Shown piece by piece: positions 5,151 to 20,207 of a DNA stretch of 64,000 bases. The stretch lies in assembly GCA_019309115.1 (NCBI GenBank), contig JAFDGW010000006.1:13157-77156 (forward strand). The letters are read 5' to 3'. This DNA comes from Deltaproteobacteria bacterium. Lineage in GTDB: Bacteria > Desulfobacterota > Syntrophobacteria > Syntrophobacterales > Thermodesulforhabdaceae. Positions within the stretch are counted from its first letter, which is position 1; the number at the start of each line of letters is the position of its first letter. Under the pieces are notes generated by a model, which was not told the origin of the DNA, did no database searches, and worked only from the letters and a program-made list of their open reading frames with translations. A program made the position numbers and the translations under genes.

Positions 5151-5675
5151 ATGAACGGAAAATCTCTTTCTTCTGAATTGAAGGAAATAATCACGGGAGC
5201 AAAGCGACTCTATGCTAATTATGGAAAAGATTTGCTCAGTGATTTAGGGTTCATGAAGGTTTTGGACGATTATGAAAAAGCAATTGAGGACACGGCTCGT
5301 GCCATGACCAGCCTGAGCATTTGGAAAATGTGCGCCATCTGTGGAAACTCTCCAAAGGGAAGTTGCTGCGCACCTGAAGTTGCCATTTGGTATGATGCTG
5401 AACTTGTCTTTGTAAATCTTCTGATGGGCTGCGACGTAGAAAAAGGTCAGTTCTACAAAGATCATTGTTTCTTCCTTGGCAAAAACGGCTGTATCCTGAA
5501 AGCGCGCCATTATTACTGTGTTCACTATCTTTGCCCGGAAATTAAAGCGATCCTTTCAGCTGCTGAGCTCGATATGCTTTACAGAACAATCGGACGCGAA
5601 ATACTGACCGGATCTAATGTGTTGCACTACTTCGAGCAATGGCGCAAACACCATGATGGCGTGATTGTGGCGTGA
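5151..5675 (+). CDS. Cys-rich protein, divergent YkgJ/UPF0153-like cysteine-cluster protein
   Basis: CAICGNSPKGSCC followed by CFFLGKNGCILKARHYYCVHYLCP resembles the CxxCGxCC ... CxFL..GCxIY..RPxxCR pattern. The ATG at 5151 has AGGGAG upstream. Confidence 0.4.
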   Translation: MNGKSLSSELKEIITGAKRLYANYGKDLLSDLGFMKVLDDYEKAIEDTARAMTSLSIWKMCAICGNSPKGSCCAPEVAIWYDAELVFVNLLMGCDVEKGQFYKDHCFFLGKNGCILKARHYYCVHYLCPEIKAILSAAELDMLYRTIGREILTGSNVLHYFEQWRKHHDGVIVA

Positions 5676-5683
5676 TTGTGGCG
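5658..5683. repeat. 11-nt tandem direct repeat (GGCGTGATTGT x2.4) spanning the stop codon of the preceding gene
   Basis: Read directly: ggcgtgattgt ggcgtgattgt ggcg. The TGA stop at 5673-5675 lies inside the second copy. Confidence 0.9.
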
Positions 5684-5704
5684 TTTTTTCTGGAAAAACA
5701 CGCC
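5680..5704 (+). other. Inverted repeat/hairpin (10 bp with one bulge). It could be a weak terminator of the upstream gene or an upstream activator site for the sigma-54 promoter.
   Basis: ggcgtttttt ctgg aaaaacacgcc, centred about 139 bp upstream of the predicted sigma-54 start site. It has no clean U-run. Confidence 0.3.
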
Positions 5705-15414: not shown

Positions 15415-16617
15415 ATGCATGATACGGAAGTTGTAATTGTCGGGAGCGGGATTATAGGTCTCACAATTGCGAGGGAACTATTGAAGCGAGGGTGCGAAAA
15501 AATACTAATACTAGAGAAGGAATCTCAGCTTGGTGTGCACGCATCTGGAAGGAATAGCGGAATACTCCATGCCGGTGTCTATTACACCCCAGACAGCCTT
15601 AAAGCTAAATCGTGCCTGCGAGGAAATATGTTGATGTCAGAATTCTGTACAAAAAACCACCTTCCTTACCTCAAAACAGGCAAAGTCATCGTCGTAAAGT
15701 CAGAATCAGAACTGGAAACGCTGGCCGAATTAGAACGTCGGGCTAGGGCAAACGGTGCCAGCGTTGAAATGATAGACGAGAAAACCCTGAAAGAACTGGA
15801 GCCATCGGCCCGGACAGTAAAGAAGGCTCTATGGGTAAAAAACACGGCAACGGTTGATCCGAGAAAAGTCCTGGAAGCTCTGGCAAAGGAGTTCGAGTCA
15901 TCCGGAAAGGTAACGATCAGATTCAACTGTATGTTCAAAGGAGTAAAATCGTCGTTCGAAATAATCACTTCCTGTGGAAACGTAAGATTTGAACACTTCA
16001 TTAATTGTGCAGGTGCATATTGCGACTGTGTGGCTCATGCTTTTGGACTCGGTAAGGAATACAAAATTGTTCCATTCAAAGGTCTGTATTGGAAGCTTCA
16101 GAGAGATTGCGTTCTAAACGACACGATAAAAGGGAACATTTACCCTGTTCCGAACCTGCAAAACCCTTTTCTGGGTGTTCACTTTTCAAGAAACATTTAT
16201 GGCGATGTTTACGTGGGTCCAACGGCTATTCCGGCTTTCGGCAGAGAACACTACGGCGTAATCAGCGGCATTGACAGAGAAGCCTTGCAAATATTGAAGG
16301 CAAATGCAATCCTGTTCTTCAGGCATCCTCAATTCCGAAGCGTGGCAATTCATGAGCCACTGAAGTATCTGAAGCCCTTTTTCTACAAAGACGCTTCGGC
16401 GCTGGTTCGCGGCTTGAAACCTGGAGATCTTGTGCCATCTAATAAAGTTGGTATACGACCGCAACTCATTAACAAAAATACCCTGTCTCTGGAAATGGAC
16501 TTTGTCATGATTAAAGACGGAAACACTGTCCACGTTCTTAATCCAATTTCGCCTGCTTTTACTGCATCAATGGATCTGGCAGAAAAGGTGTGTAATACTC
16601 TGGAAAGCTCAGAATGA
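15415..16617 (+). CDS. lhgO: FAD-dependent oxidoreductase, L-2-hydroxyglutarate oxidase/dehydrogenase-like
   Basis: N-terminal VVIVGSGIIGLTIA Rossmann motif, and SGRNSGILHAGVYY typical of the LhgO subfamily. Confidence 0.65.
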   Translation: MHDTEVVIVGSGIIGLTIARELLKRGCEKILILEKESQLGVHASGRNSGILHAGVYYTPDSLKAKSCLRGNMLMSEFCTKNHLPYLKTGKVIVVKSESELETLAELERRARANGASVEMIDEKTLKELEPSARTVKKALWVKNTATVDPRKVLEALAKEFESSGKVTIRFNCMFKGVKSSFEIITSCGNVRFEHFINCAGAYCDCVAHAFGLGKEYKIVPFKGLYWKLQRDCVLNDTIKGNIYPVPNLQNPFLGVHFSRNIYGDVYVGPTAIPAFGREHYGVISGIDREALQILKANAILFFRHPQFRSVAIHEPLKYLKPFFYKDASALVRGLKPGDLVPSNKVGIRPQLINKNTLSLEMDFVMIKDGNTVHVLNPISPAFTASMDLAEKVCNTLESSE

Positions 16618-17999
16618 AAGAGAAAAAGACTAAAAGCTTTTACAGATGTTTGGAATGCGGTTACGAATCCGTCAAATGGCTAGGTAAATGCCCATCTTGC
16701 GGAAGCTGGAACAGCTTTGAAGAAACCGTACCGGTTGCGATACGTCATTCTCCAATGTTGATTCCCGGGAAGAACGCAACGCCACCGGAAGCGCAACCTC
16801 TTAATGCCATTTCGATGGAATCGGAAAGAAGAATATGCACTCCTATGCTTGAGTGGGATCGAGTTCTTGGAGGTGGCCTTGTGCCGGGTTCTCTTGTACT
16901 TCTTGCAGGGGACCCGGGTATGGGAAAGTCAACGTTGCTACTTCAGGTGCTTGCTTCCCTGTCCACACGGCAGAAGGTTCTCTACGTATCTGGAGAGGAA
17001 AGTAGGAGACAGATAAAACTGAGAGCCAACAGACTAGGTGTCGGTGATGCAGAAGTGCTTGTGGCGTCAGAAACCACACTTGAGGCCATCCTCGAGCTGA
17101 TTTCGGCTCATGAAATTGAAGTCGTGGCCATAGATTCCATCCAAACCATTGCGTCGTCTTTGCTTGACGCAACTACGGGCACTATAACCCAGATTCGCCA
17201 CTGTACGGATAGGCTGCTTCAAATGGCGAAAACCCAAGGCGTTACCGTGATCATCGTCGGGCATGTCACCAAAGAAGGAATAGTTGCGGGTCCGAAAGCC
17301 TTGGAACACCTTGTTGATGTTGTCCTTTATCTAGAGGGAGACCGGACTCATACCTTCCGTCTTCTGCGGTCAGTGAAAAACCGCTACGGATCAACCAATG
17401 AAATCGGTGTGTTTGAAATGAAGGACAGGGGACTGGAAGAAGTCCGTAATCCCTCTCAAATGTTCTTAGCAGAGCGTCCCATTGATGCTCCAGGTTCTGT
17501 GGTAATGGCAACAATCGAAGGTACAAGACCGTTACTCGTGGAGATTCAGGCCCTCGTTTCATACAGTGCACTTGCAGTACCTCGCCGCACGGCAACGGGT
17601 TTCGATGCAAACCGAGCATCGCTACTCATGGCCGTTTTGGAAAAGCGTCTTGGAATTTCTTTTGCTCAGGAAGATGTGTTTATTAACGTGGCGGGGGGGA
17701 TAAAGCTTCGCGAACCGGCTGCGGACATGGCCGTATGTCTGGCACTTATGAGTTCCTACTTTGATCGACCGCTGCCTCACCAGCTGGTAACTTGGGGCGA
17801 AGTGGGCCTTACCGGTGAAGTTCGGGCGGTTGGCTACAGCGATGTGAGATATCAAGAGGCGATCCGCCTGGGGTTCAATAAAGTCATGGTACCGGCAACA
17901 ACGGCAGAACAGCTTAAAAAGGAGGTAAAACCACGATCGGCAGTGGAAATAGTTACCGTGAAATCTCTAAAGGATGTCTTGAACAACCTTTTCAAGTAG
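16614..17999 (+). CDS. radA: DNA repair protein RadA/Sms
   Basis: Zinc finger CLECGYESVKWLGKCPSCGSWNSF, Walker A GDPGMGKST, KNRYG motif, and a Lon-like C-terminal domain. Confidence 0.95.
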   Translation: MKEKKTKSFYRCLECGYESVKWLGKCPSCGSWNSFEETVPVAIRHSPMLIPGKNATPPEAQPLNAISMESERRICTPMLEWDRVLGGGLVPGSLVLLAGDPGMGKSTLLLQVLASLSTRQKVLYVSGEESRRQIKLRANRLGVGDAEVLVASETTLEAILELISAHEIEVVAIDSIQTIASSLLDATTGTITQIRHCTDRLLQMAKTQGVTVIIVGHVTKEGIVAGPKALEHLVDVVLYLEGDRTHTFRLLRSVKNRYGSTNEIGVFEMKDRGLEEVRNPSQMFLAERPIDAPGSVVMATIEGTRPLLVEIQALVSYSALAVPRRTATGFDANRASLLMAVLEKRLGISFAQEDVFINVAGGIKLREPAADMAVCLALMSSYFDRPLPHQLVTWGEVGLTGEVRAVGYSDVRYQEAIRLGFNKVMVPATTAEQLKKEVKPRSAVEIVTVKSLKDVLNNLFK

Positions 18000-18129
18000 C
18001 GGAGTCATTTTGATAGCTGTTTCAAGCTCATTTGCGCTTGACTTGTGTGAGTTGAATATGTATGTGAAAACTGTAATTCTTGGGATCATGATAAGCAAAG
18101 CGAAGGCGGAGGAAATTGGAGTGAGAGCT

Positions 18130-18204
18130 ATGCTTTGTGGTGGGGTTTACTATTACTATTATTGGCTAACATATAGGACCATGGAGGTGGCACGGGGAAG
18201 ATAG
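18130..18204 (+). CDS. Candidate Tyr/Trp-rich leader peptide ([24 protein letters not shown])
   Basis: Five consecutive Tyr codons plus Trp at 18148-18165, with GGAG 8 nt upstream of the ATG. In-frame upstream ATGs at 18058 and 18088 are alternative starts. A terminator lies downstream, and the aromatic-amino-acid genes follow. Confidence 0.55.
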
Positions 18205-18230
18205 CATATCTTCTACCGCTTGGGATAAAA

Positions 18231-18263
18231 AGCCGCGGGCTCCCCGGAGCCCGCGGCTTTTTT
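18231..18263 (+). terminator. Rho-independent terminator (attenuator) in the aroF-tyrA leader
   Basis: A 12-bp GC-rich stem agccgcgggctc/gagcccgcggct with loop cccg, followed by a T-run. It lies 39 nt upstream of the aroF ATG. Confidence 0.75.
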
Positions 18264-18301
18264 ATTGGACAAACAACAAAATCATCAAAAGGAGGTACAC
18301 C

Positions 18302-19315
18302 ATGATCATCGTGATGACACCTGATCATAGCCCTGAAGATCTAAACAGAGTTATTCGTCGGATCGAGGACTTGGGCTTGAAGGCTCACATTTCTAAGGGA
18401 GAACACAGAACGATTGTCGGGGCCATTGGTGACGAACGAGTTCTTCGGGAAATTCCCATCGAATCCATGTCGGGCGTGGAAAAAGTTATGCCCATTATGA
18501 GTCCTTACAAGCTGGTGAGTCGTGAATTCAAGAGTGAAGATACTATTATTAAGTGCAACGGCTACAGTATCGGGAACAAGAAGATTCAGGTAATTGCCGG
18601 TCCCTGCGCCGTGGAAAGCAGGGAAATGCTGGAAGAAGTTGCAAAGGCAATTCGACCGCTTGGAGTAAATTTTTTAAGGGGTGGAGCCTTTAAACCTCGC
18701 ACTTCCCCTTACAGTTTCCAAGGCCTTGGTAAACAGGCGCTGGAATACATGGCTAGAGTGCGCGAAGAAACGGGAATGCTGGTAGTTACAGAGCTCATGG
18801 ACCCAAGAGATGCTGTGCTCGTTGCAAAGTATGCTGATATAATTCAAATAGGTACTAGAAACATGCAGAACTTTCGTTTGCTTACGGAAGTAGGCAATAT
18901 TGAAAAACCTGTGCTTCTGAAACGCGGCATGAGTGCCACTATCAAGGAATGGCTGATGTCGGCGGAATACATAGCCAGTCAGGGTAACGAAAACATCATA
19001 CTTTGCGAAAGGGGTATCCGAACCTTTGAGACAGAAACCAGAAATACCCTGGACCTCAGTGCCGTTCCGGTTTTGAAACGATTGACCCATCTTCCTGTCA
19101 TAGTAGATCCAAGCCACGCAGTTGGACGGGTAGATCTGGTGCCTGCGATGGCAAAGGCAGCGATCGCGGCAGGGGCTGATGGATTGCTAATTGAAGTTCA
19201 TCCTAGACCTGAAGAAGCCCTTAGTGATGGTCCTCAATCACTCACGCCACAACAATTTGCTAAGTTAATGGAAGAACTGAAATGGGTTGCTGAGGCAGTG
19301 GGGCGAGAACTTTAA
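18302..19315 (+). CDS. aroF: 3-deoxy-7-phosphoheptulonate (DAHP) synthase, type I-beta with an N-terminal ferredoxin-like regulatory domain
   Basis: [13 protein letters not shown] and the IGTRNMQN and DPSH motifs. An N-terminal ~65-aa extension resembles that of Thermotoga-type, Tyr/Phe-regulated enzymes. Confidence 0.85.
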
Positions 19316-19331: not shown

Positions 19332-20207
19332 ATGAATGGCTCACTGCTCAAATTGTGGGGACCGGGCTCAACGCTTGGCATTGTGGGTGGACGGGGTGAG
19401 ATGGGACAATTTTTCGCCAACTTTTTCCGCAAAAGGGGTTATCGTGTAATAATATCCGATCCTAAAGGATCGGAATACTCCAACGAAGAACTGATATCTG
19501 AAGCAAAGGTTGTTTTATTTTCGGTACCCCTTCATGAGTCAGTAAGCATCTTGGAAAGATATTCTCCCATGTTGAAAGAAGACCAGCTTGCCGTGGATAT
19601 CTCGAGCCTAAAGGGACCTCAAATTAGGGCAATGCTCAAAGGTAGCTCGGCCGTGGTTGGTCTTCATCCCATGTTTGGTGGAAAGATACGTAGCACGAAA
19701 GGGCAGACGATTGTGGCATGCCCTGCAAGAATTGAACAGAAGGCTTGGGAAGCTTTCAAAGGCCAATTTGAAGCCGAGGGGTTTAGGGTGGTAGAATGTT
19801 CACCAGACAAACATGACCGGATGATGGCTATCATTCAGGTGTTGTTTCACCTATCTACAATGCTAAAAGGTAGAGTTCTTCGAGAAATGGATGTCAACAT
19901 TGATGACACTCTACAATTCACCAGCCCCATTTACAGACTGGAAATTAGCATACTAGGCAGGATGTTTGCCCAGAACCCTTGGCTTTATGCCGCCATATTT
20001 CAAATGAACCCTCACACGCCAGAAGTAATTGAACACCTTCAAAAGGGCATTGAACATTTCAAAACTCTATACAAAAACTCTGATATAAGCGGCGTGGTAG
20101 AGCAGTTTTGCCTTTCCGCCGATCATTTAGGGAGCTTTTGTCAGAAAGCTTACAAAGAAAGTTCTGAACTTGTTGAATTTTCAAATCGCCTCTATAACAA
20201 CGTATAA
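19332..20207 (+). CDS. tyrA: Prephenate dehydrogenase
   Basis: GIVGGRGEMGQFF dinucleotide fold and the GLHPMFG motif. The start is set at the ATG at 19332, after AAGAGGGG. Confidence 0.8.
   Translation: MNGSLLKLWGPGSTLGIVGGRGEMGQFFANFFRKRGYRVIISDPKGSEYSNEELISEAKVVLFSVPLHESVSILERYSPMLKEDQLAVDISSLKGPQIRAMLKGSSAVVGLHPMFGGKIRSTKGQTIVACPARIEQKAWEAFKGQFEAEGFRVVECSPDKHDRMMAIIQVLFHLSTMLKGRVLREMDVNIDDTLQFTSPIYRLEISILGRMFAQNPWLYAAIFQMNPHTPEVIEHLQKGIEHFKTLYKNSDISGVVEQFCLSADHLGSFCQKAYKESSELVEFSNRLYNNV

Follow-up and report, generated by a model that had tools for sequence, protein, structure and literature searches.

In the enterobacterial leaders trpL, pheL (of pheA), hisL, leuL, thrL and ilvL, a short open reading frame (mini-ORF) carries a run of codons for the regulated amino acid; an intrinsic terminator lies before the first structural gene, and the position of the ribosome chooses between this terminator and a mutually exclusive antiterminator. 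Here we describe a locus of similar layout in a 64-kb stretch of DNA from a Deltaproteobacteria bacterium (contig JAFDGW010000006.1; the whole stretch of 64,000 nucleotides (nt) is called the window below). The 302-nt gap between radA and aroF, which encodes a type I-beta 3-deoxy-D-arabino-heptulosonate-7-phosphate (DAHP) synthase and is followed by the prephenate dehydrogenase gene tyrA, holds a tyrosine-rich mini-ORF and an intrinsic terminator. We consider it probable, at roughly 0.78, that this region is a ribosome-mediated leader-peptide transcription attenuator of aroF-tyrA that would sense the supply of charged tRNA-Tyr. The evidence consists of the elements themselves, their conservation, a complementarity of the last mini-ORF codons to the terminator apex that exceeds chance and is specific to each lineage, and a switch that modelling predicts in most relatives; from the sequence we further infer that the mini-ORF is translated, that ribosomes stall on it, that a promoter precedes it and that it responds to tyrosine. 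The preliminary description of this DNA had already proposed a tyrosine-sensing attenuator, which the 12 conserved leaders and the antiterminator reported below support, the response to tyrosine itself staying presumptive.

As in the enterobacterial leaders, several relatives of the window also have a predicted helix between regions 1 and 2 that would restore termination when no ribosome is present. The present leader differs from them in its amino acid, tyrosine, and in its host, which belongs to a Thermodesulfobacteriota lineage, and it has no sequence or structure homology to the Trp_leader, Phe_leader and His_leader families of Rfam. Unlike in textbook attenuators, the 3′ strand of the proposed antiterminator is the terminator apex (the loop and the tops of both arms) rather than the whole 5′ arm, and the 5′ strand is contained in the leader ORF's final codons. 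New here are the amino-acid specificity, the clade and an uncatalogued RNA family; the mechanism itself is ordinary and will not surprise a specialist.

T-box leaders bind uncharged tRNA directly and need no translation. The tyrosine-specific T-boxes of Firmicutes are comparable to the present leader in that tRNA-Tyr charging is sensed through a choice of terminator or antiterminator over aromatic or tyrS genes; unlike them, this leader has no T-box match. Tyrosine genes of Firmicutes are under T-boxes; in Actinobacteria, a survey came up with no RNA element for such genes, and it cites T-boxes for tyrosine (PMC1262725). In Escherichia coli, aroF is repressed by a DNA-binding regulator (PMC11802643). 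The aroR leader of aroF in Corynebacterium glutamicum, a peptide with Phe-Tyr-Phe, is reported to answer to limitation for Phe and not for Tyr (Neshat et al. 2014, as summarised in PMC11802643; PMC4046766). There, as is proposed for the window, ribosome-mediated attenuation through a peptide with aromatic residues acts on a DAHP synthase gene; aroR differs from the loci considered here, which have 4-8 Tyr codons and a tyrA partner and belong to another phylum, and the likeness drawn is one of function. The uORFC-13-1 motif upstream of aroF in Acholeplasma, a predicted mini-ORF with a terminator, has been proposed to act in aromatic sensing through translation speed (PMC8632094); that motif is a U run coding for Phe and is confined to Acholeplasma, whereas the leader here codes for Tyr and matches nothing in Rfam. 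Full-text literature searches, whose coverage left out many subscription papers, found no description of a leader with a run of Tyr codons, so that an earlier description is possible. Tyrosine is a gap among the amino acids known for leader-peptide attenuation, and a conserved Tyr-run leader would extend the mechanism to this amino acid and to Thermodesulfobacteriota.

Leader elements and their conservation

The preliminary description had placed a mini-ORF at 18130-18204 with GGAG 8 nt before its ATG, five Tyr codons followed by Trp (18148-18165) and a sixth Tyr three codons on; the sequence confirms each of these coordinates (Table 1). Two in-frame upstream ATGs that it had listed, at 18058 and 18088, are likewise present, the former inside a promoter-like region. 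Upstream of the mini-ORF lies TTGACT, a −35-like hexamer, which we take to be the putative promoter of the leader transcript; a weak −10 candidate, TATGTG, is found at 18061-18066, and a simple promoter scan did not call the TTGACT region. On a second contig of the same species (L082), the leader is identical from about window position 18086 on and carries the same TTGACT element; a 24-nt stretch after the −10 region differs (L082 positions 2250-2330 against window 18062-18085), as does the upstream flank, which has no radA. Because this contig differs further upstream, the conserved unit begins at the promoter element.

The terminator of the window is a perfect 16-base-pair (bp) hairpin and the strongest terminator-like structure in the 64 kb. 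Its stem (18232-18242 with 18247-18257) closes a 4-nt loop and is flanked by five A:U pairs, with U6 at 18258-18263. A G/C-rich stem with a T-run had been noted here before, and it is present; its length is 11 rather than 12 bp, and the gap between the end of the terminator and the aroF ATG (18302) is 38 rather than 39 nt. In relatives, the stem is kept through compensatory changes (GCCGCGGGC/GCCCGCGGC versus GCCGUGGGC/GCCCACGGC versus GCCGCAGG/CCUGCGGC).

Loci of close relatives were retrieved through exact protein matches to DAHP synthase, giving a sample of the window and 12 other aroF loci (about nine lineages in all) whose DAHP synthases are 69-100% identical to that of the window. Scans of genome and metagenome contigs with the DAHP synthase returned almost only distant relatives (at most 67% identity) and two contigs of the same organism. 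The order TTGAC, Shine-Dalgarno sequence, ATG, Tyr-rich mini-ORF, terminator and aroF-tyrA is shared by all 13 loci. Conservation of a Tyr-rich mini-ORF upstream of aroF orthologs had been named beforehand as a check, and the mini-ORF is kept in 12 of the 12 other loci, with 21-36 codons. Every leader of the 13 contains 4-8 Tyr codons, in which TAT and TAC interchange and the run is sometimes interrupted; in most relatives, one further Tyr stands 2-3 codons after a Tyr run. The first 11 leaders to be examined have a purine tract resembling a Shine-Dalgarno sequence ahead of the ATG. When 100 loci of more distant DAHP synthases were searched with a covariance model of the window leader, none had a homologue; judged by its sequence, the family is confined to this clade.

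If the hairpin merely ended radA transcription, and the Tyr-rich ORF had arisen by chance or encoded an independent small protein, such as a Tyr-rich peptide with a role of its own, the layout of the window would be partly accounted for, since radA is co-directional and ends 227 nt 5′ of the hairpin, which is bidirectional in form. We regard this as highly unlikely. The upstream neighbour varies among the loci (radA, a hydantoinase, an alkaline phosphatase, a SPOR protein, a radical SAM enzyme, a DUF362 protein, a sigma-54 activator or the L13/S9 ribosomal proteins), and in seven of them (L161, L162, L164, L166, L173, L177 and L179) it lies on the opposite strand while the mini-ORF and the terminator are still present. 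Because neighbours differ and many are divergent, the terminator cannot be ascribed to a gene lying upstream. The sequence TTGAC occurs exactly once per leader, 49-95 nt 5′ of the mini-ORF ATG in 13 of 13 loci, which places the terminator inside the 5′ leader of aroF-tyrA; the 38 nt that remain after the terminator are too short to hold a promoter of aroF. When the 302-nt gap was shuffled 20,000 times with its dinucleotides preserved, a run of five Tyr codons arose once, and the run in the mini-ORF is the only one of at least four Tyr across the six frames of the window. Finally, the N-terminus and the length of the peptide vary, and at its C-terminal end it is the RNA (GGGGUAUG) that is conserved, as a match to the terminator loop; this argues against a small-protein gene.

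The same variation bears on whether the repeats are read as codons at all. The changing number of Tyr codons, their synonymous variation, the interrupted runs and the variable N-termini argue for codon selection in a translated frame and not for a fixed DNA or RNA motif. An RNA that binds a ligand, a tRNA or a protein (a T-box, a riboswitch or a TRAP-like system), with the UAY repeats as its binding motif, would also have a terminator in the 5′ leader, as all such systems do, and GGAGGUGGCACGGGG looks loosely T-box-like by eye. This explanation is nonetheless very improbable, because the UAY triplets are always in frame with the Shine-Dalgarno-ATG pair and the stop codon, differ in number between leaders, have other codons among them and may end in either U or C. 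Nor did the whole window or any of 13 related loci reach the gathering score of an Rfam 15 family; the T-box model (RF00230) gave no match at E≤1 in 17800-18500 and none at the gathering score in the window or the 13 related loci. The best Rfam leader match, and the sole sub-threshold one, was to His_leader (21 bits against a threshold of 49, E=0.52), itself a family of leader-peptide attenuators. On the basis of these searches, at E≤1 on the gap and at the gathering score on the window and 13 relatives, a T-box, riboswitch or other catalogued RNA was rejected.

Antiterminator pairing and the proposed switch

The preliminary description had found no convincing antiterminator by eye, and this no longer holds: 18187-18198 can pair with 18241-18254. 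Throughout the family, the mini-ORF closes with 10-16 nt that can pair with the terminator apex, where the 5′ arm ends, the loop follows and the 3′ arm begins; from one lineage to the next, loops and partner strands change in step (Table 1). In the 11 leaders for which it was measured, 1-10 nt separate the 5′ strand from the stop codon, and region 2 of the window ends 3 nt before that codon; because the strand ends just before the stop, a ribosome at the stop codon would cover region 2. For 10 of 11 leaders, no fold of the segment that the antiterminator spans is lower in energy than the antiterminator itself.

Two register-free tests, used in place of fixed-register covariation, revealed that this complementarity is specific. 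When the last 30 coding nt were compared with the apex, 8 of 12 leaders were more complementary than dinucleotide shuffles at p≤0.016 (four have p=0.001, the other eight 0.002, 0.005, 0.009, 0.016 for the window, 0.027, 0.057, 0.064 and 0.2). In a nine-lineage matrix of swapped partners, cognate strand pairs were better than swapped ones, with a double-centred diagonal of −37.5 against 0±8.6, a value reached in 0 of 20,000 permutations (p about 5e-5). An earlier matrix of swapped partners built on whole terminator hairpins gave no discrimination and was uninformative because stems are shared between leaders.

These elements suggest the following course of events. Transcription would start about 60 nt 5′ of the mini-ORF, and a ribosome would follow RNA polymerase closely while translating the mini-ORF. 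Where Tyr-tRNA suffices, this ribosome would reach the stop codon (18202-18204) and cover 18187-18198, so that the terminator (18227-18263) could fold and transcription would end before aroF. With scarce Tyr-tRNA, the ribosome would stall at 18148-18162 or 18172-18174, covering region 1 (18127-18141) and leaving 18187-18198 free to pair with the emerging apex (18241-18254); the terminator stem would then be blocked, and RNA polymerase would read through into aroF-tyrA.

To model the stalled ribosome, its A site was placed on the last Tyr codon, RNA was taken to be free from +13, and only transcript up to the end of the antiterminator 3′ strand was folded. Under these conditions, the partition function gave 10.5-15.9 expected antiterminator base pairs in 9 of the 13 leaders and partial formation in L164 and L166. 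Without a ribosome, the antiterminator fell to at most 0.5 bp in six of those nine leaders, because its strand is then taken up by region 1, which directly precedes the Tyr run. The helix between regions 1 and 2 is strong in six of the 13 leaders (L165, L168, L170, L171, L177 and L161; p 0.002-0.04) and marginal against shuffles in the window (p=0.07). In L168, GUACCUGGCAGUCCUGC...CCUCUAU pairs with AUAGGGGAGGAGGGGCUCCAGGUAUGC and the Tyr run sits in the apical loop; as modelled, such folding is the classical logic of 1:2, 2:3 and 3:4 pairing.

The antiterminator of the window is the weakest of the family. This is because its terminator apex has become self-complementary (CUCC-CCGG-GGAG) and because the hairpin around the stop codon takes up CGGGGA, for which it competes with the antiterminator. 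A 7-bp hairpin holding the stop codon had been described before; it is real and extends to 11 bp, and it is not significantly conserved across the family (p=0.08 in the window and 0.1-0.97 in the other leaders). As a conserved family element it is accordingly unsupported. Without a ribosome, antiterminated folds of the window lie 2.8-4 kcal/mol above the minimum; with the ribosome on the sixth Tyr codon, the antiterminator ties with the minimum at transcript length 18247. The window thus has all the parts; the switch predicted for it is shallow and would depend on kinetics.

Several results weigh against an attenuator, in the family or in the window. The spacing between Shine-Dalgarno sequence and ATG looks long in three leaders (about 11-12 nt, by eye), and specificity for Tyr cannot be read from codons alone, because the Phe-Tyr-Phe leader of C. 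glutamicum answers to Phe. RNAalifold, run on a MAFFT alignment of the antiterminator segments, missed the helix, with only three invariant pairs, and when the leaders were aligned in one fixed register to a covariance model, covariation was not significant, with 75.8% of positions paired and 74.6% in shuffles. The absence of a column-wise signal probably arises because the size of the internal loop and the register of the helix shift between lineages while aligners follow the GGGGUAUG motif. The helix between regions 1 and 2 is not universal, being absent in L164, L166, L173 and L179. In the modelled ensemble with a stalled ribosome, the window has 0 antiterminator base pairs, and L177 has none either. 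Constrained folding in search of mutually exclusive structures had been suggested as a check; modelled with and without a stalled ribosome, it predicted a switch in most relatives, and in the window with a stalled ribosome, antiterminated folds were the minimum or 0-1.2 kcal/mol above it until the 3′ arm was fully out (−23.4 and −22.2 kcal/mol at length 18247; −25.9 against −27.1 kcal/mol at 18252).

Some of these points would suit a rival explanation, in which mini-ORF and terminator are real but the window copy does not switch and its terminator, largely constitutive or else leaky, keeps aroF-tyrA at a low basal level, or in which translation acts by a route such as Rho, coupling or reinitiation and no antiterminator is involved. 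The antiterminator of the window is unpopulated in the equilibrium model and never clearly favoured, its terminator is a perfect hairpin of −30 kcal/mol, and the fixed-register covariation test was not significant. We nevertheless consider this explanation unlikely. The antiterminator dominates in 9 of 13 leaders when the ribosome is on the Tyr codons, the complementarity is lineage-specific and above chance in the window itself, and a constitutive terminator needs no conserved Tyr run 12-27 nt 5′ of the competing strand. Attenuation controlled by the leader peptide therefore remains the reading that we prefer.

Locus, host and related leaders

The features of the locus and the leaders of its relatives are collected in Table 1.

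Table 1. Features of the radA-aroF-tyrA locus (window positions, position 1 being the first letter of the window), followed by leader peptides and antiterminator strands of the relatives
Feature	Positions	Strand	Description
radA	16614-17999	+	co-directional upstream neighbour
TTGACT, −35-like hexamer	18038-18043	+	putative promoter of leader transcript; 92 nt 5′ of mini-ORF ATG
Shine-Dalgarno GGAG of mini-ORF	18118-18121	+	from sequence; 8 nt 5′ of ATG
Region 1	18127-18141	+	GCUAU-G-CUUUGUGGU; candidate anti-antiterminator, pairs with 18178-18191; duplex −16.3 kcal/mol
Leader-peptide mini-ORF	18130-18204	+	ATG 18130 to TAG 18202-18204; 24 codons and stop
Regulatory codons	18148-18174	+	proposed ribosome stall site; five Tyr 18148-18162, Trp 18163-18165, sixth Tyr 18172-18174
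Region 2	18178-18198	+	18178-18191 pairs with region 1; 18187-18198 (GUGGC-A-CGGGGA) is the antiterminator 5′ strand
Stop-codon hairpin	18193-18218	+	CGGGGAAGAUA GCA UAUCUUCU-A-CCG; 11 bp, −9.8 kcal/mol
Intrinsic terminator	18227-18263	+	bidirectional in form; A5, 11-bp G/C stem, loop CCCG, U6; −30.1 kcal/mol
Antiterminator 3′ strand	18241-18254	+	UCCCCG-GA-GCC-C-GC; top of 5′ arm, loop, start of 3′ arm; duplex −18.7 kcal/mol
aroF	18302-19315	+	type I-beta DAHP synthase, first regulated gene; Pfam PF18152 and PF00793
tyrA	19332-20207	+	prephenate dehydrogenase, operon gene 2; Pfam PDH_N and PDH_C; 16 nt past aroF stop
Leader peptide, L161			MAVGTVGRRYYYPCYHMELAGRGMG
Leader peptide, L162			MFSSRHTYYYRYYYYSSTYRGGALGVP
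Leader peptide, L164			MAGKGYYYLIYHRRDSGRGMH
Leader peptide, L165			MSRNTWQPVYLYYYYYYCSYHRGGGAPGMR
Leader peptide, L166			MAEVFFKVLDIGSGFFYYYYYGLTYKKEAGRGMN
Leader peptide, L168			MNNRTWQSCYFLYYYYYCSYHRGGGAPGMR
Leader peptide, L170			MNCNSWQSFSFLYYYPYYHRREGAPGMR
Leader peptide, L171			MGRNTWQSLYFYYYCSYHRGGWAPGMR
Leader peptide, L173			MFFVNSGLLLISTVSPLYYYYYYGLTYKKEAGRGIT
Leader peptide, L175			MQALFYCSYYYYYGAYRSVQGMHRM
Leader peptide, L177			MHRLYSGSVYYYVYYFGRCRNSGGMHKP
Leader peptide, L179 (Desulfacinum hydrothermale)			MRRFFTGFYFYYGGYYAPPGVAPPPC
Antiterminator, L161			GCGGGC-A-GGGGUA with UGCCCC-GGA-GCCUGC
Antiterminator, L162			GGGCUUUGGGUGUGCC with GGCAUACCUAAA-A-GCCC
Antiterminator, L165, L168, L170			GGGCUC-CA-GGUAUGC with GCAUACC-GAA-GAGCCC
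Antiterminator, L166, L173			GCGGGC-C-GGGGU with ACCUC-GGA-GCCCGC
Antiterminator, L175			GUUCAGGGUAU with GUAUCCUGAAC
Antiterminator, L179			GGGGUUG with CAACCCC

A DAHP synthase with an N-terminal regulatory domain, followed by tyrA, had been named as the downstream operon, and Pfam and structural matches bear this out: the aroF product has an N-terminal ferredoxin-like regulatory domain (PF18152, 1.5e-24) and matches the Thermotoga maritima enzyme (1RZM/3PG9) over its full length with E 8e-122. For tyrA, ATG 19332 is a more likely start than TTG 19287, the start given by the ORF finder, which overlaps aroF, because AGGGG precedes the ATG and because it fits the 285-317 amino acids and the aroF-tyrA spacing of about 12-140 nt seen in relatives. 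The operon thus unites the committed aromatic step (aroF) with the Tyr-specific step (tyrA), a functional fit to a tyrosine leader. The DAHP synthase is identical to proteins of metagenome-assembled genomes labelled Deltaproteobacteria bacterium or Thermodesulforhabdus norvegica, and its nearest relatives, at 69-89% identity, belong to Thermodesulforhabdaceae, Syntrophobacterales and Desulfacinum; these relatives identify the host as a deltaproteobacterium of Thermodesulforhabdaceae/Syntrophobacterales type (a sulfate-reducer lineage) and not a Firmicute.

In a sister strain (L081, Joint Genome Institute contig Ga0190313_1001383), the same radA-leader-terminator-aroF locus with an identical DAHP synthase is interrupted by a TnpB-only element of IS200/IS605 type. 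The element is about 1.53 kb long (L081:935-2464), and its ORF (1041-2459) matches Pfam OrfB_IS605 (1.9e-18) and Cas12f1-like TNB (3.3e-11). It is inserted at the point between window positions 18265 and 18266, directly 3′ of GGCTTTTTTAT and between the terminator and the aroF Shine-Dalgarno sequence, and splits aroF-tyrA from its leader.

Three relatives (L175 at 2353-2420, L177 and L179) have a second G/C-rich hairpin between the leader terminator and aroF, which in L175 and L179 is followed by a T-rich tract; the sequence suggests tandem terminators or an added regulatory layer. In L179, from Desulfacinum hydrothermale, the gene after aroF (L179:3634-5622) encodes a 662-amino-acid fusion of prephenate dehydrogenase and 3-dehydroquinate synthase, so that the Tyr/Phe leader would here also control a step of the common pathway. 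D. hydrothermale is a sequenced strain of the DSM culture collection, and the prediction is therefore directly testable in a relative of the window's host.

Mini-ORFs rich in Tyr or Phe, together with an intrinsic terminator, also precede genes of ferredoxin-domain DAHP synthases in other phyla (L054, L147, L074, L148, L071, L079, L040, L052, L130, L044, L061, L065, L068, L069 and L070), with sequences unrelated to the window leader; only cases with a terminator and conserved peptides were noted. Their peptides include MSEYMNTDVSGYYYYYTYEFAP in Spirochaetota, MRNQLTNNFYFYYMAYYYGKSCLLCG in Christensenellaceae, MFSASFAYAYFYFYYYYAA in L148 and a conserved family in Clostridia with ...FYYFTFWGFYYFSAGLFAYRK.... 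The covariance model of the window leader had no match in those of these loci that were searched (all except L130, L147 and L148), and for this reason they look like independent inventions. Counted alone, ORFs with Tyr/Phe runs upstream of distant DAHP synthase genes are not significantly enriched (22 on the forward against 31 on the reverse strand). We lean slightly towards the broader view that the window leader founds an uncatalogued 'Tyr leader' family, the first sensor of tRNA-Tyr charging built on a Tyr-codon run, which would control aroF-tyrA across the Syntrophobacterales/Thermodesulforhabdaceae clade through an antiterminator that invades the terminator apex from the last leader codons, and which would be one case of a wider and largely undescribed habit of Tyr/Phe mini-ORFs in Spirochaetota and several Clostridia. 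Attenuators with aromatic mini-ORFs upstream of type I-beta DAHP synthases may thus be common across phyla and uncatalogued, and the layout would offer a simple annotation signature for regulated aroF-tyrA operons.

Elsewhere in the window, positions 5657-5684 form a perfect tandem repeat of 2.5 copies of TGGCGTGATTG.

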